DNA of 64,000 nt from Escherichia phage vB_EcoM-RPN242, in the sequence record OL656110.1. The stretch is one strand, 5' to 3'. This document shows, one piece after another, positions 3,384-56,962 of the stretch (position 1 is the first letter of the stretch; each line of letters begins with the position of its first letter). The notes beneath the pieces are model-generated. The model saw only the letters and a list, made by a program, of their open reading frames with translations. It was not told the DNA's origin and searched no databases. Both the position numbers and the translations under genes were made by a program.

Positions 3384-3394
3384 GGGGTATTTAG
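3384..3394 (-). promoter_or_regulatory. late promoter motif CTAAATACCCCC with inverted copy at the ribosome-binding site
   Basis: Minus strand reads CTAAATACCCCCATCATCCATGGGGGTATTTTCTT-ATG; 11-12 bp inverted repeat AATACCCCCAT / ATGGGGGTATT. Confidence 0.6.
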
Positions 3395-7390: not shown

Positions 7391-8713
7391 TTAGAAAAGT
7401 CCCTTAATTAACCCTTTGCGGAAATACACGTTGCTGTCCTTGGCGATACCATCCGCAGTCACATAGACCTGTGGATCCTGGTTCGCTGGGATCTGAACGA
7501 ATGGGTTAGCACAAATCCCGTAGCGGGTCTTGAATGCCATACGTGGTGCGAAGGTGGTTTCACCCTGGGTGCGGTACATTTCCAGCGGTACATACGGTGC
7601 GAAGAAGATACCAGCGTCCAGCGCGGTTGCGCCTTTGTATGCCAGGGTGATGTATTCTGCTACTGCATACGGGTCGATGTAGACACGCATACCGTTAGAC
7701 AGCACACCAGCGAAGGTCTGGCCAGTCGGATCAATCGCCAGCTTGGTGTTTTCCTGCAGCGCCGGAGCATAATCCAGCATGCCGGACATCGCCAGAGCGG
7801 ATGCTACGTTCGGAGAACACAGAACACGGTTGCCTTTACCACGACGGGTATCAACACCGATGCCGTTCGCTTCAACTTCCAGCATGAAAGTCATGTACTT
7901 CCATTTTTCCAGCGCCCAACGACCGGAGATGTCAGTGGAGATATCTACGATACCATTGGTGCCGAATTTTTTGAAGCGTACTGCGCTGAAGTTCATGGTG
8001 CGGATAAACTCACGGTTCATCTCTGCCTGAATTTCAGTTACCATCACGTCGGACAGGATGCTGTCAACGTCTTCGCCGTGGATCGCCATCATGTCCTGGC
8101 GCAGTTCGTGGCTGTAGTCAGCGTACAGGCCACGAGACTTCGCAGTCACGGTTGCTTTCTGAACGGTGATACCAACACGTGCCCATGGGTTGGTGGTGGT
8201 GCCCAGCAGTTCGGCGTCGGTAGTTGACATACCTTTACCGATGGTGGTAGCAGCGCCGGAACCTTCGATCTCAGTCTGGGAGAAGCCAGATGGGTCGCCA
8301 GCCTGTGCAGTGTCGTCACCAGAGTAGCCAGAATCAGCTTCCTGCATGAACAGTTCTTTACGGGAATGTTGGGTGTTGGAGCCGCCGTCTGAAATGCCCT
8401 GGCGAGCACGCAGTGCGAAGATCTGACCGTCAGGACCAGACAACGGCTGAACGCCGAAGAAGTCCATCGCGATGTTGACCGGAGCCAGACGTTTGGCCAT
8501 GTCGATCAGGACTGGCTGCCATTTGCCCACAGAGGCGTTCACGGAGCCAGGAGCGTCAGATTCGCCCAGGTTTTTGGCGTTCCACTCAGCCTGGTTTTGC
8601 AGCAGACGGACGGCAACGTTTTCGGCAGAAAGCGGCTGGATGCTTTCAGATTCTTTCTGAAGAACTGGCAGCCACTGCTCGCGCATTTGTTCGGTAACAA
8701 GTTTCTTAGCCAT
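7391..8713 (-). CDS. major capsid protein (T4 gp23-like)
   Basis: 440 aa; follows scaffold, protease and portal in T4 order; ATG at 8713 has TAAGGAA upstream. Confidence 0.75.
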   Translation of the reverse strand: MAKKLVTEQMREQWLPVLQKESESIQPLSAENVAVRLLQNQAEWNAKNLGESDAPGSVNASVGKWQPVLIDMAKRLAPVNIAMDFFGVQPLSGPDGQIFALRARQGISDGGSNTQHSRKELFMQEADSGYSGDDTAQAGDPSGFSQTEIEGSGAATTIGKGMSTTDAELLGTTTNPWARVGITVQKATVTAKSRGLYADYSHELRQDMMAIHGEDVDSILSDVMVTEIQAEMNREFIRTMNFSAVRFKKFGTNGIVDISTDISGRWALEKWKYMTFMLEVEANGIGVDTRRGKGNRVLCSPNVASALAMSGMLDYAPALQENTKLAIDPTGQTFAGVLSNGMRVYIDPYAVAEYITLAYKGATALDAGIFFAPYVPLEMYRTQGETTFAPRMAFKTRYGICANPFVQIPANQDPQVYVTADGIAKDSNVYFRKGLIKGLF

Positions 8714-8804: not shown

Positions 8805-9656
8805 TTAGCCGTTGATGCCGAAGCGACGATTATAGTCGGCCAACTGACGCTTGATAGATTCTTTCAGCTCTTTGTCTGTTTCATCTTCATCGTCATCTTC
8901 ATCGCCTTCTTTCTTAGGCTTTTTGCCTTCGGCTTTAACATCTTTGTTGTCGTCATCGCCGTCTTTACCGCCGACTTTGTCCTGGAAGTCATCGTCATCG
9001 TCATCGCCTTCTTTCTTCACGGACTTACCTTCTACCAGGTTGCGGAAGGTGTGTACGCGGGAAGCGAATTCGCTTTCGGTGGTGAACTGCACAGCTTCCA
9101 GCAGATTGACAACCGTTGCTTTCTTGGTGTCGACCATACCTTCACAGATACGGGCGATCACAGAGTCACGCAGAGTCGCATTCGCGGCTTCTTTGATTTG
9201 ACGGTTTTCGCTTTCGGCAATCGCAGCACGTCGTTCTGCTTCGGTCAGGCGGGCAGTCAGCGCAGCGATCTGGCCGTTTTCGTCGGTGGCAAAGTTGATA
9301 CCAGCTTCTTTCAGAACACCAGTCAGGCCAGTCAGCAGATTTTCAGCCGCTTCACGTTTGATCTGAGCATCGATTCCAGGAGCGTTCTTGTTAGCCCACT
9401 CTTCTACAACAGCATTCAGGAAGCCATCGACTTTGGTCGCGATTTCCATCAAGTGAGACTCTTTCAGCTGAGCAATCTCAGCCTGATGAGCTTCAACCAG
9501 ACGCAGGCGCTCAATGTTGGCAGCGTTTTCGGTTTCTTGAATAGCGTTCAGGCGAGCGGCTTCTACTTTAGATTCCAGCAGACCAGACACTTTATCCAGG
9601 AAGTCGGTGCTGAGGCCGTTAACGCCCTCAAACAGTTTTTGCAATTCAGGTTTCAT
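8805..9656 (-). CDS. prohead scaffold protein (gp22-like)
   Basis: 283 aa, coiled-coil-like with a poly-acidic tract (DDDDDDFQDK...EGDEDDDEDE); positioned between protease and capsid. Confidence 0.7.
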   Translation of the reverse strand: MKPELQKLFEGVNGLSTDFLDKVSGLLESKVEAARLNAIQETENAANIERLRLVEAHQAEIAQLKESHLMEIATKVDGFLNAVVEEWANKNAPGIDAQIKREAAENLLTGLTGVLKEAGINFATDENGQIAALTARLTEAERRAAIAESENRQIKEAANATLRDSVIARICEGMVDTKKATVVNLLEAVQFTTESEFASRVHTFRNLVEGKSVKKEGDDDDDDFQDKVGGKDGDDDNKDVKAEGKKPKKEGDEDDDEDETDKELKESIKRQLADYNRRFGING

Positions 9657-9701: not shown

Positions 9702-10370
9702 TCAGCCCAGATGTTTCAATGCGATATCGAGGCGGCGCAGGAAGTCGTCTTCTAACTGAATATTGGTTTTCACCAATGAATCGACCACATGCCCCTTAAT
9801 GTCCTTAGGAACCCAAATTCCTGAAGATTCATCAAGCTGCCATTCCACAGATTCGCTCACAGCCTTTACATAACAAACTTGTCCAGAAGGACGGTCGACT
9901 GCATCAACAGCAGTGAGCATAAAGCCGGGTTGAACGTCATCATAGCCGTTCACTGACTTGGTCTCACCAAGGCCACGTGTAGACACGGCCAGGTTGAAGT
10001 CTGCTTCAGCCAGAGCACGAATGATCTGACCTTTCGGTGTATTCAGGATCCGCGCTCGACCGATAGCGTTGGTGCCTTCCCAGCGCAAAGATTCGGTTTT
10101 GAGTGCAGCGTGTTCGATATCGGGGAAAGGATAATCCGGATGCTTGAGTTCACCGATTGCACGACGATCCTGGATATACTCTTTGTCGTATGCTTCGACA
10201 GCAGGGATACCCACCTTTTGGAGATCGTAGTTGCGACCATTACGGTTCACCTGGTTACACATCACGAATGGACCTTCGATGTACATGGCCTTGCCGCCAG
10301 TAGCCGTGGCCGCTTCACCAATCTGAAGATCTTTCCCTATCGCAGTGATCTCACGCAACAGTTTCATCAT
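9702..10370 (-). CDS. prohead protease (gp21-like)
   Basis: 222 aa; sits between prohead core genes and scaffold; AAGGAG upstream. Confidence 0.65.
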   Translation of the reverse strand: MMKLLREITAIGKDLQIGEAATATGGKAMYIEGPFVMCNQVNRNGRNYDLQKVGIPAVEAYDKEYIQDRRAIGELKHPDYPFPDIEHAALKTESLRWEGTNAIGRARILNTPKGQIIRALAEADFNLAVSTRGLGETKSVNGYDDVQPGFMLTAVDAVDRPSGQVCYVKAVSESVEWQLDESSGIWVPKDIKGHVVDSLVKTNIQLEDDFLRRLDIALKHLG

Positions 10371-10377
10371 TCGCTCC

Positions 10378-10683
10378 TTAACTCAGTCCCATCATACGAC
10401 GGAACTTCATTGCTTTTTTCTTACGACGCTCGATTTTGCGCTGGTATCCCATACCCATGCGTTTCTTGGCTCGGATCGCCTTGCGGTTGCCCAGCTTGCG
10501 AGTACGGCGCTCACTGGCGACCATCACCTCACAACGGGAACCATCCGCAGACAGTTTGAAACCAGGAGCACACTGAAGACGGCGACGGCGTTTGCCTTTT
10601 GCGTTCACCTTGTCAATGACTTTCTGCTCATCCATGCGGGAAGCCAGGAAATCAGCGAACGTTGCAACTTCTTCGATTTCCAT
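10378..10683 (-). CDS. highly basic small protein, likely prohead core/internal protein
   Basis: 101 aa rich in Arg/Lys (KGKRRRRL, RRKKKAMKFRR); AGAGGA upstream. Confidence 0.5.
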   Translation of the reverse strand: MEIEEVATFADFLASRMDEQKVIDKVNAKGKRRRRLQCAPGFKLSADGSRCEVMVASERRTRKLGNRKAIRAKKRMGMGYQRKIERRKKKAMKFRRMMGLS

Positions 10684-10695
10684 GATACATTCCTC

Positions 10696-10866
10696 TTACT
10701 GGTCGTCGCCGAAAGGACCCATGTCTTGGCTCAGGGAGTTCAAGACATATTCAGTACCCTGCTGGACCAGTTCTTGGGCGCGAGCGGACAGCTCCATTTC
10801 GCATTCAGCAGCAGCGGCATCAGTATCACCAGCGATGATTGCTTTTACCAGATCGATAGCGGCCAT
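10696..10866 (-). CDS. small acidic prohead core protein (gp67/68-position)
   Basis: 56 aa from ATG 10866 (MAAIDLVKAIIAGDTD...); track start is a GTG overlapping the portal gene. Confidence 0.4.
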   Translation of the reverse strand: MAAIDLVKAIIAGDTDAAAAECEMELSARAQELVQQGTEYVLNSLSQDMGPFGDDQ

Positions 10867-10903
10867 GTTCATATCCTCTAAATGTTTTCTATACTTAGTC
10901 GAA

Positions 10904-12598
10904 TTATTCTTCACCACCAGGAGGGTTAGTCGCTGGGATGACGTTAGGTCTGAATTTCAGTGGACTGACTTCCCCGCTGCCGAAGCCGCCGGACTCATCT
11001 GCCTGCACTTCAGGGTATTTGCCTTCTTTCTTCTCTTTCGCGATCTTCTCTTGCTGGTCTTTGATGTCTTCATCGGACATACGCAGCAAATTGCGTTGAG
11101 CAAAATCGATAGAGAAGAGAGTGCCGATATATGGTTCGATCTGACCGAGAGCCGCCATACGCTGTGACAAGATTTCGTTCTCTTGTTGTTCACGGATGAA
11201 GCTGTCAGAAGTGAATTCGAACTTGACGAACGGCTTGATCTTCTCATTCCAGTCAGCCTGATCTGTAATGCCTTTCAATATCAGTTGACGGCGCAGAAGT
11301 TCCAGGAAGATACCAGAAGAATAACGACGGCGCAGGCTCGCACAGAACTTGTTGAAGCGCAGTTCTTCCTGTGTGATTTCAGCAAGATTGGAACCACCGA
11401 TGTTGATGGAACCTTCCTCTTGCAGGCGGCTCTTAGGGATCATCAGAGCCTCGTAGAGCTTCTCGCGGAAGTATACCACATGATCCATTTGACCCAGTTG
11501 ATCGCCACCGCCTACGTTGGAGATCTCGGTTGCGTTCTGCCCTTCGCGACGTGGTAGCCAGTAGTCCTCAGCGATACCCATCAAATGAGTGTTACCAGCC
11601 ACCTTACCAGTGGTGCGATCATACGCCAGGCGGTTCTTGAATTTGCCCATCATGGCTTGCATGTATTCTTCGGCCGACTTCTTACCCAGCGTACCCACGT
11701 CGAGATAGAAAGCTCGCTTCTCAGGAGCACGTGTGATCGCATAGATCACCGTTGCATCTTCAGTTGTAACAAGGTTGTTCAGGGGACGGATAGCTGGGTT
11801 CAGCAGGCTTGGTACAACCCCATTCGCCAGAGGCTCTTCACCACTGTCCAGATACACTATGCTCTCATCATCAAACACCAGCTCTTGCTGTGACGGTTGG
11901 AAGTTCTGAGACGTACCGGACTGGCCAGTGAATTGGTTGCGGTTGTAGTTCGGGTTGTAGTAGTATTGAAGTTTTACGTCATTGATGACTTCGATACCGT
12001 CGCGCATCGCCTTTTGAACGATGTACACTGGGCGGATACAGCGTGAGTCCATCATGATGAGTTTGGCGATACCCGCTTTCTTGTTCTTCGGGTCCACTAC
12101 AACGTGGAATGCCTGACGGCCTTCAATATACCATTTGCGGATCTTCTGATACGCTGTGTTGTCAAAGTCAAGGAGATGCATGATCTCTTTGAATGCGTCA
12201 GTGATCTTCTCTTTGACTTCGTCTGTGATGCCATCTACCTTTTCCAGGTTGATGGTTACAGGAGTCTCTTCCTCTTCACAAGTGACGACGTCGTTGACAA
12301 TGATATCCACAGCCTTACGAATCTCAGGCTGCTGAGCCATAGACTGGTACTCTTCGACCAGCTGTTTGACGTTGAGCAACTCATTCTCAACACCAACGAA
12401 ATTGAATGTGTTCGCGCCGCCCTGGAGGATGATGGAACCATCCTGAGAATCGTCCAGCGCAACAACAGTCGCTTTTGAAAGCAACTTCTCTTCTTGGTTC
12501 GTGACCATCTTGTCGGTATCAATCGGCGCTTCTACTTTGCCGCCTCTGCCGAACAAGCCGAAGAACCCATTTCCGAATGCACCATTACCGAATGCCAT
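10904..12598 (-). CDS. portal protein (gp20-like)
   Basis: 564 aa; sits between tube and prohead core genes as in T4. Confidence 0.75.
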   Translation of the reverse strand: MAFGNGAFGNGFFGLFGRGGKVEAPIDTDKMVTNQEEKLLSKATVVALDDSQDGSIILQGGANTFNFVGVENELLNVKQLVEEYQSMAQQPEIRKAVDIIVNDVVTCEEEETPVTINLEKVDGITDEVKEKITDAFKEIMHLLDFDNTAYQKIRKWYIEGRQAFHVVVDPKNKKAGIAKLIMMDSRCIRPVYIVQKAMRDGIEVINDVKLQYYYNPNYNRNQFTGQSGTSQNFQPSQQELVFDDESIVYLDSGEEPLANGVVPSLLNPAIRPLNNLVTTEDATVIYAITRAPEKRAFYLDVGTLGKKSAEEYMQAMMGKFKNRLAYDRTTGKVAGNTHLMGIAEDYWLPRREGQNATEISNVGGGDQLGQMDHVVYFREKLYEALMIPKSRLQEEGSINIGGSNLAEITQEELRFNKFCASLRRRYSSGIFLELLRRQLILKGITDQADWNEKIKPFVKFEFTSDSFIREQQENEILSQRMAALGQIEPYIGTLFSIDFAQRNLLRMSDEDIKDQQEKIAKEKKEGKYPEVQADESGGFGSGEVSPLKFRPNVIPATNPPGGEE

Positions 12599-44864: not shown

Positions 44865-44941
44865 GGTCCTGTAGCTCAGTGGTAAGTAGCAGTGAACTCA
44901 TAATTCATTGGTCGTTGGTTCAAATCCAACCAGGATCACCA
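44865..44941 (+). tRNA. tRNA with CAU anticodon (Met or Ile2)
   Basis: Hand-folded cloverleaf: acceptor GGTCCTG/CAGGATC, anticodon loop CTCATAA, T-arm GTTGG-TTCAAAT-CCAAC, encoded CCA. Confidence 0.75.
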
Positions 44942-45193: not shown

Positions 45194-45282
45194 GGAAGGT
45201 TGCCCGAGATGTTTAAGGGACTCGACTGCTAATCGAGTGGGGCTTTTAGCCCCCGAAGGTTCGAATCCTTCACCTTCCGCCA
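45194..45282 (+). tRNA. tRNA-Ser (GCU) with long variable arm
   Basis: Acceptor GGAAGGT/ACCTTCC, anticodon stem CTCGA/TCGAG with loop CTGCTAA, variable arm GGGGCTTTTAGCCCC, T-arm GAAGG-TTCGAAT-CCTTC, CCA. Confidence 0.75.
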
Positions 45283-46389: not shown

Positions 46390-47664
46390 ATGAACAAATT
46401 CGCTGCACAACCCCTCGCTCCATATATCCCGTTCCGCACGTATATCCCGTTCCACACGTTAGGGAAAGGTCCATATAAAACGATTTTTGATGTCCTCTCT
46501 CTTCATCGTGAACATATTCACTGGGAAGACTACCTCTACAAACACACTCCGTGTGAACTCGTCGCCAACCCCGAAACTAACCAGCAGGTCTGGTTCAAGC
46601 GTGAAGATTACTTCGCGCCGCTATCTTGTTATATGAATGGCAAGCAGGGCATCAATGGCAGTAAGTTGCGCCAGGCCATCTGGTTGATGGTTGAGCACCT
46701 GAAGACCGGAGGCTCCCCTGACATCATCCATGGTACTGTCGTTGGTAGTCCGCAGTCCCCTATGGCGACGGCAGTCTCTCGGCACTTCGGCGGCAAGACA
46801 ACCACTGTACTCGGAGCGACCAAACCCACCACCTGTATGAACCACGACATGGTGGCAATGTCAGCCTGGTTTGGTAGTGAGTTCAACTTCGTCGGCTCGG
46901 GTTACAACAGCACGATCCAGCCGCGCTGTAAGAAGTTGATCGAACAACAGAATCCAAAGGCGTATTATCTGGAATATGGTATCACCCTCGACCACACAGC
47001 GCATTCTCCTGAGCGCATCGCTGGCTTCCATATGCTGGGTGGCGAGCAGGTTGCCAACATCCCTGACCATATTACCGATCTGATTATCCCAGCCGGATCC
47101 TGCAACTCTTGCACAAGCATCCTGACCGGGCTGGCAATGCATCCGAAGCCTAATCTGAAGCGTGTGTATCTGATTGGCATCGGTCCTAACCGCCTTGACT
47201 TTATCGAGAGCCGTCTGCGCATCATCGGCAAACATGCCAATCTGCCGCACATTGTCGACTTCACCCGTCGCTATCACGACAACCCAGACTATGTACACGG
47301 CAAGAAGGAGCTTCAGCATGCCTCTAAGAGCGTTTCGCTGGCTGGCCTCCTAAGTGGTATCAGGCAGAAGGAAGAGCCAGAGGTCGTGCTTCCTCGCTTT
47401 GAGGTACACCATTGGGATCTTCATACCACTAATTGGGTTCGTTACAATGATCTGATGGAATATCAGTGGGGTGATATTGAGTTGCATCCTCGCTATGAAG
47501 GCAAGGTCATGACCTGGGTTCAACAACACAAGCCCGAGTTGCTCAACGAGAACACCCTGTTCTGGATTGTGGGTAGCAAGCCATACATCGAGCCGATGAA
47601 GGCAGCATGCCCTGAGCTGGCTATCCCTGAAACAGTTCCTGTAAACGACTTCACCCCTTCCTGA
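46390..47664 (+). CDS. putative PLP-dependent enzyme (fold-type II, ACC-deaminase/D-cysteine-desulfhydrase-like)
   Basis: 424 aa; GINGSKLRQ resembles the GGNKxRK PLP-lysine loop and GSPQSP the Gly-rich phosphate loop; AGGAG upstream. Confidence 0.45.
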   Translation: MNKFAAQPLAPYIPFRTYIPFHTLGKGPYKTIFDVLSLHREHIHWEDYLYKHTPCELVANPETNQQVWFKREDYFAPLSCYMNGKQGINGSKLRQAIWLMVEHLKTGGSPDIIHGTVVGSPQSPMATAVSRHFGGKTTTVLGATKPTTCMNHDMVAMSAWFGSEFNFVGSGYNSTIQPRCKKLIEQQNPKAYYLEYGITLDHTAHSPERIAGFHMLGGEQVANIPDHITDLIIPAGSCNSCTSILTGLAMHPKPNLKRVYLIGIGPNRLDFIESRLRIIGKHANLPHIVDFTRRYHDNPDYVHGKKELQHASKSVSLAGLLSGIRQKEEPEVVLPRFEVHHWDLHTTNWVRYNDLMEYQWGDIELHPRYEGKVMTWVQQHKPELLNENTLFWIVGSKPYIEPMKAACPELAIPETVPVNDFTPS

Positions 47665-47670
47665 TCCATC

Positions 47671-47681
47671 CTAAATACCCC
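47671..47681 (+). promoter_or_regulatory. late promoter CTAAATACCCC with inverted repeat, plus strand
   Basis: CTAAATACCCCATGCAAACCAGTGTGGGGTATTT-ATG. Confidence 0.6.
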
Positions 47682-47704
47682 ATGCAAACCAGTGTGGGGT
47701 ATTT

Positions 47705-48169
47705 ATGAAAACCTTTCTTGAATATCTTAAAGAGGCGTCTGAGGCTGAACCCAAGTTCGATAACATGCGCCTCTTTCACGGCTCCAACGTAGGATTCGAT
47801 GTCTTCGACTTTGAGCGCTTCGGTCAGACTGACTGTGGTACGATGGGACCTGGGTTCTATCTGACAGGCAACGAAGAAGAGGCACAGCGCTATGCAGAGA
47901 ACGCCGTCCGCTACCGCCAGAGTGGTGAACCCCATGTTCTGGTGTTTAACGTCAGTGTTAAGAAGCCCCTCGAACTCGACTCTAACAATGTCTCGGCCTG
48001 GGAAGACGCTATGCGTGAACTTGGTATCGAACCGGGTAAGATCCATGAGAACGCCGCCGAGCTAATTGCTCAGGGCTATGACTCCACCATCGTGCTGGAC
48101 CGCTTTGGGTTGCCTATGGTGCGTGAGATCGTCCTGTACAAACCAGGCCTGGCAGTGCGGGAAGCCTAA
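47705..48169 (+). CDS. late-expressed hypothetical protein, 154 aa, with an HGS motif
   Basis: RLFHGSN...GFYLTGN suggests a nucleotide-modifying fold but is unverified; driven by a late promoter. Confidence 0.55.
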   Translation: MKTFLEYLKEASEAEPKFDNMRLFHGSNVGFDVFDFERFGQTDCGTMGPGFYLTGNEEEAQRYAENAVRYRQSGEPHVLVFNVSVKKPLELDSNNVSAWEDAMRELGIEPGKIHENAAELIAQGYDSTIVLDRFGLPMVREIVLYKPGLAVREA

Positions 48170-48177
48170 ATACCCCC
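48166..48177 (+). promoter_or_regulatory. late promoter CTAAATACCCCC
   Basis: The TAA stop of the upstream gene is embedded in the motif; GAGGAA then ATG at 48206. Confidence 0.55.
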
Positions 48178-48205
48178 ATATGGCTAACCCACTGAGGAAC
48201 CTAAC

Positions 48206-48664
48206 ATGCCAACCTCCAAATTGTTTGAATCAGAATACACCAATGACATCCCTGTATGGACTGGTGTTCAAGACGGTATCACGATTGAGCTGTTTGATCG
48301 TGAAGAGACAGGCGCGGAAGAGATCTATGCAGGCGTTGAAGGCACTGATGTTGTCCGCGCCGCCGTAGCACTTGCCACCTTCCTGGAAGATGCACCGATT
48401 GATGGTGTGCCGTTCGAGGCGCACGTAGATCCTCAGGATCCGACCTCTATCATCATTACAGTGAATGGGGTGCCATACACTTCATACAGCATCGAGACGG
48501 ACGAAGAAGGCAGTGGAGCGCTGTATATTGCCACCGACCTGCAGCTGGAAGACGATGAGATGGATTATCTGATTCAGAACGGGGTGCTGCCACCGTTTAC
48601 CGATGAAGAACTGGACACGGAACTGGCCGCCGTCGGGGACGACGAAGACTTCTGGGAAGAATAA
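48206..48664 (+). CDS. highly acidic late protein, 152 aa
   Basis: Asp/Glu-rich throughout (EEGSGALYIATDLQLEDDEMDYL...DEELDTELAAVGDDEDFWEE). Confidence 0.55.
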   Translation: MPTSKLFESEYTNDIPVWTGVQDGITIELFDREETGAEEIYAGVEGTDVVRAAVALATFLEDAPIDGVPFEAHVDPQDPTSIIITVNGVPYTSYSIETDEEGSGALYIATDLQLEDDEMDYLIQNGVLPPFTDEELDTELAAVGDDEDFWEE

Positions 48665-48666
48665 GA

Positions 48667-48695
48667 AAAGGGGCTTAACGCCCCTTTCTTTATTT
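48667..48695. terminator. bidirectional terminator GGGGCTTAACGCCCC
   Basis: Between convergent gene ends 48664 (plus) and 48690 (minus); T-run on plus, A-run upstream. Confidence 0.65.
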
Positions 48696-49241
48696 CACCT
48701 TGCGAGTTGGATATTGGTTAAAGAGTTTGCCTAGCTTAGACACGTTGATGATCGTTTGGGTCTTCCAGCGCTGGATCCCTTCCGGGGTAGTCACGGTCAG
48801 GATTGAATGCCCCCAAATGTGGGAACCGTCCAGCACAGCCGCGCTGTGGCTACCAATCTTATCTTCCAGTTTGCAAATGAAAGATTCATACTGATGGGCA
48901 GCGTTGCAACGGGCTTCCTTGATGAACAGACGCTGGCGCTCTGGATCGGCCTTGACGATGTTCGGTGCACCCACTTGATAAGAACGGTTTGGCGGGTTAT
49001 TGTCGGTAGTCAGGCTCATATACAAAGACTGCTTTGCCTTCATGCGATGGTAATCGTGGTGACCCATTCTGATGCCAACAGTTGATGGCCAAGGAGCGCA
49101 CTTCTGAAGATCCCAGCCGTTGGTGGCTAGATCGTCCATCACGTTCTTGATGATTTTGTTCGCGTACTGCTCGGCAGCTTCTTCGGCTTGCGACAACAGA
49201 GGCTCAACAGCGATACGGACAGCAGTTTTTGGTATTGTCAT
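48690..49241 (-). CDS. hypothetical protein, about 183 aa
   Basis: ATG at 49241 with GAAGGG upstream; track start 49295 over-extended. Confidence 0.5.
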   Translation of the reverse strand: MTIPKTAVRIAVEPLLSQAEEAAEQYANKIIKNVMDDLATNGWDLQKCAPWPSTVGIRMGHHDYHRMKAKQSLYMSLTTDNNPPNRSYQVGAPNIVKADPERQRLFIKEARCNAAHQYESFICKLEDKIGSHSAAVLDGSHIWGHSILTVTTPEGIQRWKTQTIINVSKLGKLFNQYPTRKVK

Positions 49242-50598: not shown

Positions 50599-52016
50599 AT
50601 GACCGTCTTCTATACGAACGTTGCCCGCCGGGGCAATGACCTGTTGATTCGAATCGCAGATGACATGGGTAATCGCCGTCTGTTGAAAAAGAAATTCGAA
50701 CCCACTCTCTATTTACCCACGGCTGATTATTCAAATGTTGAAAAGGTCGGCCTGCTCAACGAACCCCTGGTCTCCAAGAAGTTCCCTGACATGCGCACTG
50801 CTGACAACTACCTTGAAGAGTACAAGGAAGTCCAGGGTGCAGCCATTTACGGGCAGACCGATTATGCATACCAGTTCATCGCCCATAGCTTTCCTGGAAA
50901 GATTGAGCCGGATTACTCCAACATCCATATTGCTAACCTCGATATCGAAGTGTTCTCCGCCGGGTGGAAAGATGGAAAGATGACCAAAGGTCCATTCCCT
51001 CACCCAACCATTGAGCAGCAGACGTTCAAAGGGAATGAGGCGCGCATTCGCCGCTTCCATCAGCAGGTACTGGCCAACCATGACTTCATCCGTGAGCACT
51101 TTCCCAGTTCCTTTATCAGCAACAACGTCACTGATCAGTTCCCTATCATTGACAGCAACGGTAAGATCACCCAAGACATGAATGCGGCGTTCCCCATTAC
51201 CCTGATCCAGCTTCAGGACATGGCGACCAATAAGTTCATGGTGTGGGGTATGCCGTGCGCGAAGGATCGTGCGAAGTTCAGATACGATCCAGAAGACGCG
51301 GAGATCGGTGGACTTGAGGTGGAGTACAAGGAGTTTGTCACCGAGCAGGATCTGCTGCGATCTTTCCTTGACTTCTGGTCACAGCGTCAGTTCGACGGCT
51401 GGACAGGCTGGAACATTGAGACGTTTGATAGCCCTTATCTTGTTGAGCGCATGAATCAGGTTCTGGGTGAGGCTGAAACGTCGCGCCTCAGTCCTTGGGG
51501 TATCATTAAGAAGCGTATCATTCGCGATAAGAAGGGCGATATCACGACGTATCAGTTCGTGGGTTGCCCTATGCTCGATTATATGCAGATCTACAAGAAA
51601 CACACGTACACCACCCGTGAACGCTACTCTCTTGACTGGATTGCGTATTGTGAGCTGGGTGAGAAGAAGATGGACTACAGTGAGAGCAAGTCGCTCTTTG
51701 ATCTGTACTTCAACGACTACTGCAAACACACCCGATATGGTATCAAAGACGTTAAGCTGGTATGGCGACTTGAACAGAAGCTGCGCCTGCTCCAGCTGAT
51801 GTTCGTCCTGGCCTACCGCACCAAGTCCAACTATGAGGACGGCCTGGGTACTGTGGCTCCGTGGCTGGCCATGTGCTATTATCGCCTGTATGAGAAGGGG
51901 ATAGTGCCTAAGATCCAGCGTGTATACGATGGTCCGACCGACTTTGAGGGTGCATACGTCATGGATGTGACACCAGGAATCTACTTCTGGGTCTTCTCTG
52001 AGGACTTGAACTCCCT
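50599..52016 (+). CDS. DNA polymerase, family B, exon 1 (N-terminal and exonuclease region up to motif A)
   Basis: N-terminus MTVFYTNVARRGNDLLIRI... resembles T4 gp43; frame ends at ...SEDLNSL, the first half of motif A. Confidence 0.85.
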
Positions 52017-53199
52017 TAAGTTAGCAGCATAGGGGCTTTGGTTGGCGACAACCATCGAATAACTCTCTTAATTGCTGGGAAGTCTCTTTAGAGATAATCA
52101 GCAGCCAAGGTCGGCCACGAAGACCTAAATACTCTGTAACCACGGTGAAGGAGTAAGGTCATGAAGGAAATCAAGAGTCTGTTCTATCGAAATGATTTGG
52201 TAATTGAAGAATCTAAGATAGAAGAATATTTGAAGTTCTGTAAGGAACACAGTTATGATGGTGATGGATACAGTGAACGCCATCATATACTGCCTCAGGC
52301 GCATTATCCTGAGTTCTCTAAAGAAGAATGGAACATTGTAAACCTGTTATATAAAGATCATGTAGAGGCTCATCGCCTGTTGCATGAAGCATTACCAGAA
52401 GATAAATCAGCGTTCTTCGCCTACTTCATGATGAAATCCCATAACGGGGAACTAAGTGAGGAATTGAGAAGAAAGAATGTTGAAATGCTGACGGGAGAGG
52501 GAAATCCTTCGAAGAGGGAAGATGTCAGAAGAAAGATATCCAAATCTAAGAAGGGTGTTAGAAGAGCAGATATGAAGGGTAAGGCTTATTTCGGCGCTGA
52601 TAAAGAAACAGCTGAAAGAATTAAAGCCAATTCCAGTCTTGTTCACAAAGGCACTGTCCCCGTAAGACTCCTGGATGGTAGTGTTATCAAAGTTTCAACG
52701 CAAGACCCGAGATATTTGAGTGGTGAGTTGAAATGTATAATAGGTGCAAAGAAAGGTCAGGTGGGACCAAACACCGACCCAAAAGCGAAGAAGAAATTTA
52801 AAGATTCTTTAGAGAAAAGGAAGGAAATGTTTGCCAGAATGAGTGGGGAAGAAATAACCACTCATTGCTTGACACAACAGGATTTAGGTAAGAAGACTGT
52901 AGAGTGGGGCAAGTTGGCAAGAAACTTCAAACGACTCTTTGGTTACGCTGGGTTAAACCCAGATGATTTCCTTGAAGTAGTGGGTGACAAGGTTCAACGA
53001 CTATCGAAAGCAAGACCGACGACTAAGCGTCTGATCTGAAGCGAGTAGAGTAGGGGCAAGCGCCTCGAAATGGAGAGAATCTCTAGACAGTTCTGGAGAT
53101 TGTGATATAGTCTGGCCTGTATGGTGACATACAGCAGTGTTCGGTAAACTGAATGACGAACACGGGGGATGAAATAGCGAGCATCCCTGAACATAAGCG
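52017..53199 (+). mobile_element. group I intron carrying an HNH homing endonuclease gene
   Basis: R-like element GTTCAACGACTA at 52992-53003 and S-like GATATAGTC at 53104-53112; 5' exon ends in U, intron ends in G; splicing gives DLNSL|YPHIIQQYNLGPETI. Confidence 0.7.
52161..53039 (+). CDS. HNH homing endonuclease (intron-encoded)
   Basis: ERHHILPQ...NIVNLLYKDHVEAHRLLHE is an HNH motif; GGAG upstream; 3' end overlaps the intron core. Confidence 0.8.
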   Translation: MKEIKSLFYRNDLVIEESKIEEYLKFCKEHSYDGDGYSERHHILPQAHYPEFSKEEWNIVNLLYKDHVEAHRLLHEALPEDKSAFFAYFMMKSHNGELSEELRRKNVEMLTGEGNPSKREDVRRKISKSKKGVRRADMKGKAYFGADKETAERIKANSSLVHKGTVPVRLLDGSVIKVSTQDPRYLSGELKCIIGAKKGQVGPNTDPKAKKKFKDSLEKRKEMFARMSGEEITTHCLTQQDLGKKTVEWGKLARNFKRLFGYAGLNPDDFLEVVGDKVQRLSKARPTTKRLI

Positions 53200-54781
53200 A
53201 TATCCACACATCATTCAGCAATACAACCTCGGTCCAGAGACTATCGTTGGCGACAAACACCAGCGCCGCGAGATTATTGAGGCTATGTGTGAAGAGCTGG
53301 CTGCTCAGATGAATAACATGGCAACGCCGATGCACAAACGTCGGTTGATGAAAGCCCTTCACGACAAGCTGTTGCGTGCGGTTGACGAACGCCTGCAGGT
53401 TGTTGATGAGTTGGTTGCCCTGGGTGAGTTCCACTTTGAAACCCTGCGCCGCTACAACGTGTCGTTCACGCCGAACGTTCAATTCTTCAGCAACGAGAAG
53501 ATGTCGTTCCTGTCTGAAATCATGCGTGGTATCTACAGCGACCGTAAAGTAGAGAAGGCCAAGGGTCTGAAGTATGAGCAGTGGGCTGGCTGGTGTAAAG
53601 AGATGTCGAAGGGCGACTTCCATCTTGAGTCTGCCATGAAGTCTCGCTACTATGACCCAGAGTGGTATGAAGAGCACAAGAACATTGATCTTGATGCCCT
53701 GACCGAAGTGATGAAGAAGTGGGAAGACCTGGGCGTCGCTCAAGATACCCTACAGCAAGGTCTGAAGATCTTGATGAACGCAGGTTATGGCGCTATCTCA
53801 AACGTCTGGTTCAAAGAGTACTTCAACCTCAACATTGCCGAAGCCATCACCACATCCGGTCAGCTGATCAACAAGTGGAACAAGCGTTACACTGATGACT
53901 ATCTGAACAAGCTGTGTGGTACAACAGGCCAGGACTTCGTCATCGCAGGGGATACCGACTCCAACTACATCTGTATTGAGCGTCTTGTCAAGCAGTTGTG
54001 GCCTGATGTTACTGACCATCATGCTATGGTTGATAATATCGACCAATGGATCAAAGACAACTACCAGCCGAAGACCAATGAGTGGGCACAGCTTCTGTGT
54101 AACACCATGAACGGATTTGAACAGCGCATGGTGTGGGAGCGTGAGGTCATTGCGTCAGCCGCTGTCTGGCGAGCCAAGAAGATGTATGCCATGGCCGTGT
54201 ACGACAGTGAGGGTATCAAGTATGAGAAGCCGAAGATCAAGTTCAAAGGTCTGGAAGCCCGCAAGTCCACCACGCCGGAATGGTGTCGTGAGCGCCTTGT
54301 CAAGTGCTATGAGAAGATCCTACTCGGCACCGAAGAGGAAGTACAGACGCTCATCTCCCAGTACAAAGAGGAGTATATGAAACTCTCTGTAGACGATATC
54401 GCCAAGGCGTCAGGCGTGTCCGACATAGAGAAGTGTGTGGCTGCTGACGGATCGTTTATATCTGGTGCTCATTTTGCTGCCAAGGCGTGTGTGGGCTACA
54501 ACCGTCTGGTTGAGAAGAACGAAGATCTGGGTCTACCGATGATCGAGTCGGGTGATAAGGTACAGATGGTGTTGTTGAAGCCGGGCAACCCGTTTGGGCA
54601 GAACTACTTTGCATATCCTGAGTTCTTCCCAGAGGAGCTTGGTCTGGGCAAATGGGTGGATTATCAGGCGGCCTTTGAGAAGTCCTTCATTGATCCGATT
54701 CAGTCTATCCTCGACGTGGTCGGCTGGTCACACAAGCGCCGTGTGAACCTTCTTGCCATGATGCAAAAGAAGAAAGGTTGA
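53200..54781 (+). CDS. DNA polymerase, family B, exon 2 (motif A second half, motif C, thumb)
   Basis: Begins ...YPHIIQQYNLGPETI; contains VIAGDTDSNYI (motif C). The track's ATG at 53153 lies inside the intron. Confidence 0.85.
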
Positions 54782-54843: not shown

Positions 54844-55185
54844 ATGAAACTCAATAAGATTCTTCTGGTGTGCGCTCTGGCTTTCTCTACCACTGCGTGT
54901 TCCACCCTTCTGGACGTTGCGTCTACTGTAGACCTTGACGCGCCGACGTTCACCAATGAGCAGGCCGTGTCCAAGATGGAAGACACCATCAAGGCGCATG
55001 CAGCACTGGACAACACTACCCCAGGTCCGCTCCAAACTGTCTGCAACTATGACGATTCCATCCAGGAAGACGAAACTTACCACTGCATCACCTACGTGAA
55101 GCAGGCCTCCGTCGTTCTGTATGCAGATTGTACCGAAGAACAGTGTGTTGCTACAGGCTACGATAAAGTTGAGGAAGACAAATGA
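54844..55185 (+). CDS. putative lipoprotein, about 113 aa
   Basis: MKLNKILLVCALAFSTTAC signal peptide with lipobox-like TTAC; AGGTGA upstream; track start is a GTG at 54835. Confidence 0.5.
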   Translation: MKLNKILLVCALAFSTTACSTLLDVASTVDLDAPTFTNEQAVSKMEDTIKAHAALDNTTPGPLQTVCNYDDSIQEDETYHCITYVKQASVVLYADCTEEQCVATGYDKVEEDK

Positions 55186-55961
55186 ACAACCTGGTTTGTA
55201 TCTATGATATGAAATCAAAGGTCGGTGGCCTGTATCGCGTCCTCGTGGATGTTGACCTGACGTTGGTCGACAGCCTCTCCCCTTGGGTGCAGTGGTTTAA
55301 CGAAGAGAACATCGCCGCCGCTGCTACCGCTACGGGGGAACATAAGTCATACCAGTTCCAGCCGATTACCAAAGAGTGTTATATGTCCCATGCTGGCGAC
55401 CTGGCTATTCTGATGCGTGAACGTGCGCATCCGGCGTGGCTATACCATGAAGTCCAATTGGGGATGCACAAACAACGTGTGCCAAGCGGTAACGATCCTA
55501 TGGACTGGTGGCGTCGCCCTGACTTGTACGCCAAGATGAACCCACTTCCTGGTGCTTACGAGTTCCTGGTAAATCTGAAGAAGATTCTGCTCGAAGACTT
55601 TGACAATGTTGAATTCATCGCAGTGTCCAAGTGTGAGCCGGAACACGAGCGCAGCAAGCGCCAGTTTGTCTACGACAAGTTCCCTGGTATCTTCAACGGG
55701 TTTGTCAGCACCGACGAAAAGCATCTGCTGGCTGGCGATGTCCTGATTGATGACAATCCGAAGTATGTCGAGCCATGCGGTCTGAACAACATCTTCGTCA
55801 TCTTTGTTCCTCAGGGTAATTATGAAAAACTGGATCTTTCGAATTCGGAAGACATGCTTTATATTAAACCAGTAGAAGGCCAGAACCACTTCGACTTCCT
55901 GAACCACAATATTGTCGAAGTGGTTAACCGCCTGATTAGTCATTATCAATACGTCCGATAG
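55182..55961 (+). CDS. HAD-superfamily hydrolase-like protein (possible nucleotidase)
   Basis: LVDVDLTLVDS resembles HAD motif I (DxDxT/V); ATGA overlap with the upstream stop. Confidence 0.45.
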   Translation: MNNLVCIYDMKSKVGGLYRVLVDVDLTLVDSLSPWVQWFNEENIAAAATATGEHKSYQFQPITKECYMSHAGDLAILMRERAHPAWLYHEVQLGMHKQRVPSGNDPMDWWRRPDLYAKMNPLPGAYEFLVNLKKILLEDFDNVEFIAVSKCEPEHERSKRQFVYDKFPGIFNGFVSTDEKHLLAGDVLIDDNPKYVEPCGLNNIFVIFVPQGNYEKLDLSNSEDMLYIKPVEGQNHFDFLNHNIVEVVNRLISHYQYVR

Positions 55962-55970
55962 GAGGACATC

Positions 55971-56276
55971 GTGCAAGAACAATCCAAGTTTGGGGAAACC
56001 CCAGACAAGCGTTCCGGTGATAGCGACATGGATAGCGTGATTAACCATGTGAACAACTTCATTCGCCAGCAGGAGACTCCAACTCCTATCGGTGCAGCCA
56101 AGGCTCTTCATGATGTACTGGTGAAGATCGGCCAGCGCTCTGAAGCGGATGAAATCTTCTATAACTTCGACGACCAGTATAAAGTTAAGTTTGAAGAGAA
56201 TGGCTGCCCACAGGTTGCTGTGTTCTGGGCACCTTGGCTGGGCGGCGTGAGCTGGCGTATTGAGGATGCTGTGTAA
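55971..56276 (+). CDS. hypothetical protein, 101 aa
   Basis: GTG start with strong AGGAGG 6 nt upstream. Confidence 0.5.
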   Translation: MQEQSKFGETPDKRSGDSDMDSVINHVNNFIRQQETPTPIGAAKALHDVLVKIGQRSEADEIFYNFDDQYKVKFEENGCPQVAVFWAPWLGGVSWRIEDAV

Positions 56277-56962
56277 TGCTGTCGCTTTACCTGATCACGA
56301 ATCTCGTCAATCATAAATTCTATATCGGTGTCACCTCAGAACCGGATAGGCGGTTGGCTGAGCATAAGTGTGGTCAGGGGAGCATTGCATTACAACGAGC
56401 GTTCAAGAAATACGGTGAAGACCAGTTCAAGTTTGAAGTTCTGTTCCGAGGGAAAGATTCGGTTATCCTTCAGATAGAGTCTGAACTGGTCTGCCAGGAG
56501 ATCCTTGACTCTGGGTGGTGCTACAACATGGTCGTCGGGGGTGGGAAGCCTCCATTGGCCACGCCTAATTCATCCGCAAAGAGTGCTGCAACCCGCAAAC
56601 GTTTGATCGCTGAGGGTAAGATCAAGCCACCTCCCCGCATATCGGCTGAGTCACAAAGAAAGGGTGGTGAAACCAGAAGGAAACTGATTTCCGAGGGAGT
56701 GATAAAGAAGCCATTACCTCCACCTTCAAAAGCCCAGAGGCGAGCAGGTGAGACAAGGAAACAGTTGCATGCTCTTGGCCTGATAGACATTGGTCCTGGC
56801 CGCGATGAAACGATTTACAAATGGCAGCACAAAGATGGTCGCATTGTTGAGTTAAGAAGATGCGATATGGAACTTCAATATGGCCTCCCTTCTGGTAATA
56901 TAACGAATCTCTTGAAAGGTAGGGCTAAAACATGTCTCGGTTGGAGAATAATGAATGGCTAA
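56276..56962 (+). CDS. GIY-YIG homing endonuclease with C-terminal NUMOD-like repeats
   Basis: LYLITNLVNHKFYIGVT...RRLAEH; three repeats of TRK.L...G.I; paralogous to 13218..13931. Confidence 0.8.
   Translation: MLSLYLITNLVNHKFYIGVTSEPDRRLAEHKCGQGSIALQRAFKKYGEDQFKFEVLFRGKDSVILQIESELVCQEILDSGWCYNMVVGGGKPPLATPNSSAKSAATRKRLIAEGKIKPPPRISAESQRKGGETRRKLISEGVIKKPLPPPSKAQRRAGETRKQLHALGLIDIGPGRDETIYKWQHKDGRIVELRRCDMELQYGLPSGNITNLLKGRAKTCLGWRIMNG

Follow-up and report, generated by a model that had tools for sequence, protein, structure and literature searches.

Why should two small genes that lie next to replication and DNA-modification genes each stand behind a putative late promoter of their own, and what might their products do? 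The question is raised by positions 47,671 to 48,664 of a 64,000-nucleotide stretch of Escherichia phage vB_EcoM-RPN242 (record OL656110.1), a stretch that is referred to throughout, at its full length, as the window. The two plus-strand genes concerned, called here gene 1 and gene 2, encode a protein of 154 amino acids (aa) with an HGS motif and an acidic protein of 152 aa. In the initial annotation, both were proposed to be virion-packaged effectors and no known family was recognised for either. We consider it moderately probable that two late promoters, two genes and a single terminator here make up a late transcription unit complete in itself, in which gene 1 encodes an ADP-ribosyltransferase (ART) that would be packaged by means of a T4-type capsid-targeting sequence (CTS) and translated under the control of a leader hairpin, and gene 2 encodes an acidic virion protein that is independent of gene 1. 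The features of the unit are as follows:

47669..47708, plus strand: leader hairpin predicted by RNA folding, with the 5' arm UAAAUACCCCAUGC (the promoter motif) and the 3' arm GUGUGGGGUAUUUA running into the AUG at 47705-47707
47671..47681, plus strand: putative late promoter 1, exact motif CTAAATACCCC, with a TAAATA core of the gp55/gp33 type
47705..48169, plus strand: gene 1, 154 aa, ATG start
47705..47734, plus strand: codons 1-10 of gene 1, predicted capsid-targeting propeptide MKTFLEYLKE, by likeness to the T4 CTS
48166..48176, plus strand: putative late promoter 2, exact motif CTAAATACCCC
48206..48664, plus strand: gene 2, 152 aa, ATG start
48667..48687, both strands: predicted bidirectional intrinsic terminator

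Both reading frames lie exactly where the initial annotation had placed them, and the full motif that it had claimed ahead of each gene is indeed found as an exact copy of CTAAATACCCC, at 47671 and at 48166. Putative promoter 1 begins 6 nt past the stop codon (47664) of the gene for a pyridoxal phosphate (PLP)-dependent enzyme and lies 24 nt ahead of the gene 1 ATG, and putative promoter 2 overlaps the TAA stop codon of gene 1, lies 30 nt ahead of the gene 2 ATG and is followed by a GAGGAA Shine-Dalgarno sequence. The window contains seven exact copies of the motif and one copy with a single mismatch, where 0.48 matches with up to one mismatch are expected by chance and none of 100 dinucleotide-preserving shuffles of the window reached eight. 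The minus strand carries the five remaining exact copies, of which four stand directly ahead of structural-module open reading frames (ORFs) of 242-1063 aa. The terminator, a GC-rich hairpin with T-runs on both strands, is shared with the convergent minus-strand genes. Promoter motif and terminator are kept in phages LIMEstone1, CAU_YEP3, ViI, AG3 and ZQ1, in Erwinia phage Bue1 and in a metagenomic relative, and the motif of promoter 1 is kept ahead of the gene 1 orthologues of LIMEstone1, CAU_YEP3 and ViI. In the LIMEstone1 record (HE600015), both promoter positions are labelled 'putative late promoter', and the 3' hairpin is labelled a terminator there and in the AG3 record. Genes 1 and 2 present dN/dS values of 0.04-0.14, a sign of purifying selection, and both are therefore real genes. 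The description of the surroundings as an early-gene region should be taken as approximate only. Upstream, the unit is bordered by the PLP-dependent enzyme gene, and on its downstream side there is a split DNA polymerase gene.

Domain and leader of gene 1

Residues 21-128 of the gene 1 protein match the Pfam family ART-PolyVal (PF18760) with 40.8 bits, as compared to a gathering cut-off of 31.2, and an E-value of 4.9e-10, and the related family DUF3990 scores slightly under its own cut-off. The same ART-PolyVal match is found in 18 of 25 relatives, and a Salmonella-phage orthologue bears the UniRef name 'ART-PolyVal-like domain-containing protein'. The protein has the ADP-ribosyltransferase fold, and its best structural match is a podophage ejection protein. 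These results agree with the ADP-ribosyltransferase-like fold that was initially put forward as a possibility for the HGS protein, and the statement that no known family was recognised does not hold for it. Other resources were less informative: PHROGs places genes 1 and 2 in families of unknown function, NCBIfam yielded no match for either protein or for the PLP-dependent enzyme, and profile searches of both protein families against PDB sequences gave only chance matches (E >0.05).

The HGS motif corresponds to H25-G26-S27. In an alignment that reaches relatives of 22-28% identity, H25, G26, G48 and G50 are invariant, and conservation is 90% or more for Y52, T54 and D126 among 25 sequences (down to 22% identity). 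As described by Iyer et al., the catalytic triad of ART-PolyVal domains consists of a His in strand 1, a Tyr in strand 2 and an Asp in strand 5 (PMC5512222). With strands assigned from AlphaFold2 (AF2) secondary structure, the H-Y-D residues of gene 1 fit this triad; H25, Y52 and D126 are the catalytic candidates, together with Y63 and E141. The latter, found in the stretch VREIVLY, is conserved in the ART-PolyVal-like subset only and, we presume, may match the catalytic Glu of PARP and diphtheria-toxin motifs. Membership places gene 1 among the ADP-ribosyltransferases of the H-Y-D (ART-PolyVal) family, and enzymatic activity would be expected of it.

Gene 1 is a stand-alone 154-aa ORF rather than part of a large polyvalent protein. 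Other stand-alone ART-PolyVal members are present in the database, and the domain also occurs, in more distant relatives, within polyvalent proteins of 1135-2751 aa on viral contigs. With the ART-PolyVal domains of such polyvalent proteins (PF18760; Iyer et al. 2017), gene 1 shares the domain family, the triad and the predicted delivery by the virion during invasion. It differs from them in consisting of this domain on its own, with a T4-type targeting peptide apparently taking the place of fusion to a giant multidomain protein as the means of delivery.

That peptide is the first ten residues of the protein. The internal proteins of T4 enter the prohead by means of an N-terminal CTS of about ten residues, MKTYQEFIAE, and are cut once beside it after assembly (PMC8442874). 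The prohead protease gp21 removes the propeptides of Alt and of the internal proteins, with the Alt sites mapped to ITE-6 and LTE-619 (PMC5694885). The leader of gene 1, MKTFLEYLKE, is identical to the T4 CTS at five of ten positions and conservatively replaced at three, and ends in L-K-E, a predicted prohead-protease site of the L-x-E form. M1, T3 and F4 are invariant among the gene 1 orthologues. When all six frames of 142 kb of LIMEstone1 were scanned for ORFs with [FYW][LIVM]x[YFW][LIFMV]xE among their first 14 residues, three were identified and no others: ORF080 (MKPFIQYFNE), ORF082 (MSKPSFLQFMQE) and ORF173 (MKTFLQYLQE), the last being the orthologue of gene 1. All three are annotated as 'confirmed structural protein' of unknown function. 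Relative to a background taken from ORF bodies, the motif was seen at N-termini four times, with 0.14 occurrences expected in 293 ORFs.

Stand-alone relatives of gene 1 are also found on T4-like contigs, where they are 37-56% identical to one another and to gene 1 and begin with the leaders MIKTFTQYLNE, MITFKQFLNE, MKTFREFLLE, MKTFLEYITE and MRSFAEYLAE. On one such contig (L008), the ART gene lies just past a tRNA cluster, downstream of the genes for gp57A and Acb1, and its neighbours include small ORFs starting with MKTYNEFLTK and MKTFLEFVNE; we take this locus to be a hypervariable locus of the T4 ipI type. That a T4-like leader is carried by gene 1, by virion ORFs and by the T4-like relatives argues for gene 1 as internal-protein-type cargo with an enzyme payload. 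The leader is thus predicted, from its likeness in sequence, to act as a propeptide of the T4 CTS type and to be cleaved as such.

ORF080 (L004 8789-9358) and ORF082 (10520-11011) of LIMEstone1 are virion proteins confirmed by mass spectrometry, have no Pfam domain and are likely the Ackermannviridae equivalents of internal proteins.

Virion detection, gene 2 and the loss of gene 1

Orthologues of both proteins have been detected in virions. In purified LIMEstone1 particles, ORF173 (17.3 kDa) was identified with 11.8% coverage and ORF174, the orthologue of gene 2 (16.6 kDa), with 12.5%, each by one peptide (Adriaenssens et al., PMC3296691). All 12 LIMEstone1 structural proteins of unknown function were stated to have structural counterparts in the ViI proteome (PMC3296691). 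In the ViI record, Vi01_183 and Vi01_184 are both labelled 'phage associated protein', and their neighbours 'putative uncharacterised protein'. A literature search on virion structures of Ackermannviridae returned nothing relevant. The virion evidence, which concerns orthologues only, should be considered real but thin. As to the proposal of virion-packaged effectors, which is supported in part, the detection of both orthologues and the CTS-like leader of gene 1 speak for it, and the effector role is weakly supported where gene 2 is concerned.

The gene 2 protein contains 39 Asp and Glu residues (26%) as compared to three Lys and Arg residues, which corresponds to a pI of 4.05 and a net charge of -36, and is thus as strongly acidic as had been noted. 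Its N-terminus (MxxSxLFExE) is conserved and disordered, residues ~14-132 form an alpha/beta core, and the C-terminal tail is acidic and contains an invariant DFW. An exhaustive profile search of 1.84 billion cluster representatives returned only eight proteins, one of which was rejected as spurious (a repeat protein aligned on a short PT..I.ITV stretch). We found no convincing fold match for gene 2 and no similarity to any known structural protein. Gene 2 is present in all Ackermannviridae lineages sampled and is an orphan confined to this family.

The initial annotation had compared gene 2 with DNA mimics, yet no similarity in sequence or fold to proteins of the Ocr, ArdA or Arn type was found. 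The likeness lies in small size and extreme negative charge, and gene 2 differs from these proteins in being late and virion-associated; Ocr is an early protein that is not known to be packaged. A role as a co-packaged acidic decoy or anti-defence protein can be proposed with weak support, and a role in the head core or another structural role is nearly as likely. To see in L6-F7-E8 of gene 2 a protease site is speculation.

In the ViI orthologue Vi01_184 (L011 2986-3441), an aberrant MHRYRARMCPRCRSPCNVLRRR is found where all relatives have YASVQGTDVVRAAVALATFLED; the probable cause is either two frameshifts that compensate each other or an error of sequencing in that record.

By tblastn, 223 phage records were found to contain gene 1, as compared to 277 for gene 2. 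ZQ1 and AG3 have lost the ART domain by excision. ZQ1 retains a mutated promoter (CTGAATA), the hairpin and, behind them, an in-frame remnant of 23 codons, MKTFLQYFRRVVLYKPDLAKREA (L006 1804-1875), in which the targeting leader is fused to the final 13 codons. In AG3, a frameshifted remnant (L007 2395-2490) stands behind an intact promoter. Both phages have kept an intact promoter 2 and an intact gene 2 (98-99% identity). When the window was compared with LIMEstone1, gene 1 showed a dS of 1.47 and 72% protein identity, as opposed to a dS of 0.67 for the PLP-dependent enzyme gene and 0.47 for gene 2, both with 94-96% protein identity (96% for gene 2, with a dN/dS of 0.04). Because the dS of gene 1 so exceeds that of the genes flanking it, replacement of the gene 1 allele by recombination is suggested. 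In a metagenomic relative (L010), an ART gene with its own CTAAATA motif lies two genes upstream of gene 2. Gene 1 is thus an accessory, exchangeable cassette, and gene 2, since it persists without gene 1, is not its dedicated immunity protein or chaperone.

We also considered the slot between the PLP-dependent enzyme gene and gene 2 as a hotspot for cargo genes. This was rejected, as the genes next to it in Bue1 and L010 are homologues of a 222-aa ORF of the window; they have no leader and no domain match.

Leader hairpin, proposed mechanism and rival explanations

Downstream of promoter 1 lies the inverted complement of the promoter itself (CTAAATACCCCATGC-AAACCA-GTGTGGGGTATTTATG). On read-through RNA, the two would form a stem of 14 bp with two outer pairs, which takes in the A and the G of the start codon. 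Folding of 47660-47725 gave -20.9 kcal/mol (z -5.2), with none of 200 shuffles equally stable. RNA that begins at 47684, and so lacks the 5' arm, is unstructured (-5.5 kcal/mol, z 0.15); according to the T4 spacing rule, a late transcript of the T4 type would begin at this position. The hairpin is possible only on RNA initiated upstream of promoter 1, and no terminator is predicted between the stop codon of the PLP-dependent enzyme gene (47664) and the promoter (47671). Ahead of gene 2, RNA folding revealed no hairpin in the window. In L010 and Bue1, in which no other late gene stands between an upstream gene and gene 2, a hairpin of similar stability is found ahead of gene 2 instead (-20.1 and -19.0 kcal/mol, respectively), with arm sequences that differ from those of the window.

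The same arrangement of promoter and hairpin is documented for the T4 genes e, soc, 49 and I-TevI (PMC3014915). There, as predicted for gene 1, the 5' strand of a hairpin contains the late promoter, and on read-through RNA this hairpin occludes the start region. In distinction from T4 gene e, gating is predicted here, and the arrangement recurs ahead of several structural genes of the window phage.

For five of the seven exact copies of CTAAATACCCC (38081, 34813, 32151 and 3394 on the minus strand and 47671 on the plus strand), a GGGGTAT(T) complement follows 8-20 nt later, at places from abutting the start codon to a few nt ahead of it, and the copy at 3394 is then followed by TTTTCTT. The conserved 'ACCCC' tail of the promoter consensus may therefore have a second function, either as an anti-Shine-Dalgarno arm or, at some of the copies, within a terminator.

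Taken together, we propose the following course of events. RNA reading through from the PLP-dependent enzyme gene would fold the promoter back on the start codon of gene 1, and RNA from the late promoter would keep the start site free, so that the gene 1 protein would be made late in infection. It would be recruited by its leader to the gp22/gp21 prohead core, trimmed by the prohead protease after L-K-E10, retained in the filled head and ejected along with the DNA into the new host. There, ahead of all phage gene expression, it would transfer ADP-ribose from NAD+ to a host target. The gene 2 protein would likewise be made late and become associated with the virion, independently of gene 1.

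In its proposed mechanism, the unit resembles Alt and the internal proteins of T4. Alt is an enzyme made late and carried in the head, with a short N-terminal propeptide that is cut by gp21 at I/L-x-E, and is injected with the DNA, as is proposed for gene 1. However, Alt belongs to the R-S-E (Alt/VIP2) clade while gene 1 has an H-Y-D triad, and mature Alt is 68.2 kDa with a six-residue ITE leader, as opposed to 154 aa and a ten-residue leader of the internal-protein type. No sequence relationship between gene 1 and Alt and no match to an Alt-family Pfam or PHROG entry was found, and gene 1 is, by membership, an ART-PolyVal rather than an Alt-family protein. With IPI, IPII and IPIII of T4, gene 1 shares the MKT[FY]xE[FY][LI]xE leader, late expression (predicted for gene 1), gene sites dispersed beyond the structural module, dispensability and rapid turnover. 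Nonetheless, the T4 internal proteins are highly basic (PMC8442874), whereas gene 1 is acidic and a predicted enzyme, and IPI*, which inhibits a restriction endonuclease, is no enzyme.

Several points weigh against the proposed course of events and should be considered. In LIMEstone1, on which the virion detection rests, each protein was detected by one unique peptide, and rIIB, ligase, PhoH and gp44 were picked up at low coverage in the same experiment (PMC3296691). The alignment of gene 1 to ART-PolyVal spans only positions 7-111 of the 140 profile positions and, being partial, does not decide between D126 and E141 as the catalytic acid. With a pI of 4.8, gene 1 is acidic, unlike the basic T4 internal proteins, and it is dispensable, being reduced to remnants in ZQ1 and AG3. 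An effector role of gene 2 is drawn from its charge, late promoter and virion detection only, and an acidic protein would be an odd companion for packaged DNA.

Other explanations were also weighed. Both proteins could be architectural, as head decoration, neck or tail parts that are not injected, with the ART-like fold serving as a catalytically irrelevant scaffold. The 'structural protein' labels given to the orthologues in databases would agree with this, as would the high conservation of gene 2 and its presence in all the lineages sampled. However, gene 1 retains the invariant His and the conserved Tyr and Asp of active ARTs, has been deleted in AG3 and ZQ1 and carries an internal-protein-type targeting peptide with no homology to structural proteins, and for gene 2 no similarity to known structural proteins was found; we thus regard an architectural role of both proteins as quite unlikely. 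Alternatively, the proteins could act late in the producing cell, for example by modifying host or phage proteins or by blocking abortive infection, and their detection in virions would then reflect carry-over. The single unique peptides, found beside clearly non-structural proteins, fit such carry-over. It is, nonetheless, hard to reconcile with the structural counterparts in ViI that the LIMEstone1 proteins of unknown function all have (PMC3296691), with the labels that set both ViI orthologues apart from their neighbours and with a leader motif common to two further mass spectrometry-confirmed virion proteins and to internal-protein-like ORFs of T4-like phages, and we consider it rather improbable. 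The acidic protein might also neutralise the ART or escort it in the producing cell, in the manner of ART toxin-immunity pairs or of type III secretion chaperones. Such a pairing was rejected, as gene 2 is found in phages that have no gene 1, and we give it very little credence. A packaged ART with a T4-type targeting peptide, accompanied by an independent acidic virion protein, is thus the explanation that we favour.

A more far-reaching combination would have gene 2 found an Ackermannviridae-specific class of packaged acidic anti-defence proteins, acting as a decoy alongside the hypermodified DNA in an IPI*-like manner, and would have the 'ACCCC' half of the extended promoter consensus owe its conservation in part to action as an arm against the Shine-Dalgarno sequence, such that late genes are translatable only from their own promoter. 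We consider this combination unlikely.

The promoter and virion-status annotations were already known, and the domain had been recognised by Pfam and UniRef. What is added here is the tie of the targeting peptide to the T4 internal-protein system, predicted gating of the gene e type, the history of natural deletion and suggested allele replacement of gene 1 and the status of gene 2 as an independent, lineage-restricted orphan. T4 Alt is almost the only head-packaged ADP-ribosyltransferase for which experimental evidence exists, and a different ART clade would here apparently use the targeting peptide of the T4 internal proteins, in a large phage family that includes phages of Salmonella, E. 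coli O157, Klebsiella and Dickeya. If so, the gene 1 product would arrive ready-made and act as an effector within the first seconds of infection, the natural deletion variants AG3 and ZQ1 would allow the role of gene 1 in host range or defence evasion to be gauged, and the ten-residue leader could serve as a packaging tag in the engineering of such phages. The gene 2 protein is a reasonable candidate for anti-defence screening.

Host phage, head module and neighbouring genes

Matching 47400-48900 against phage records yielded 227 matches, nearly all to Ackermannviridae, namely ViI-like myoviruses of Salmonella, Escherichia, Dickeya, Klebsiella, Shigella and Enterobacter. The closest DNA is that of Enterobacter phage fGh-Ecl02 (97.6% identity over 86% of the query), whose gene 1 protein is 99.4% identical to that of the window, and Salmonella phage pSal-SNUABM-02 matches across the entire query with 92.4% DNA identity. 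The window phage is thus a ViI-like member of the Ackermannviridae. When LIMEstone1 ORF138-143 were compared with the window by tblastn, a T4-like head module was found with 91-98% identity. The head module genes and the enzyme gene upstream of the unit are the following:

7394-8713, minus strand: major capsid protein
9021-9656, minus strand: gp22-type scaffold (93-94% identical to LIMEstone1 ORF139)
9705-10370, minus strand: gp21-type prohead protease (93-94% identical to LIMEstone1 ORF140)
10381-10668, minus strand: core protein
10907-12538, minus strand: portal
46390-47664, plus strand: PLP-dependent enzyme, 424 aa (Pfam PALP, below cut-off)

The gp21/gp22 head module is the machinery that would be expected to recruit and process CTS-bearing cargo. 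The PLP-dependent enzyme is 92-94% identical across Ackermannviridae subfamilies and thus much more conserved than both late genes, and is probably an enzyme of the thymidine-hypermodification pathway found in ViI-like phages. Gene 2 sits one or two genes downstream of it in the genomes examined.

Other features of the window were noted in passing. Genes for tRNA-Met (CAT, 44865-44941) and tRNA-Ser (GCT, 45194-45282) separate the structural module from the block of plus-strand genes. The gene for the family-B DNA polymerase is in two pieces, one for the exonuclease (50599-52032) and one for the polymerase (53153-54781), with a 292-aa ORF (52161-53039) between them and a CTAAATA at 52125 ahead of this ORF. 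The insertion agrees with the intron and homing endonuclease I-LimII of LIMEstone1, annotated there with a late promoter. Further on, an NT5C-like 5'-nucleotidase ORF (55182-55961) lies upstream of a 228-aa GIY-YIG ORF (56276-56962), which is probably a free-standing homing endonuclease.
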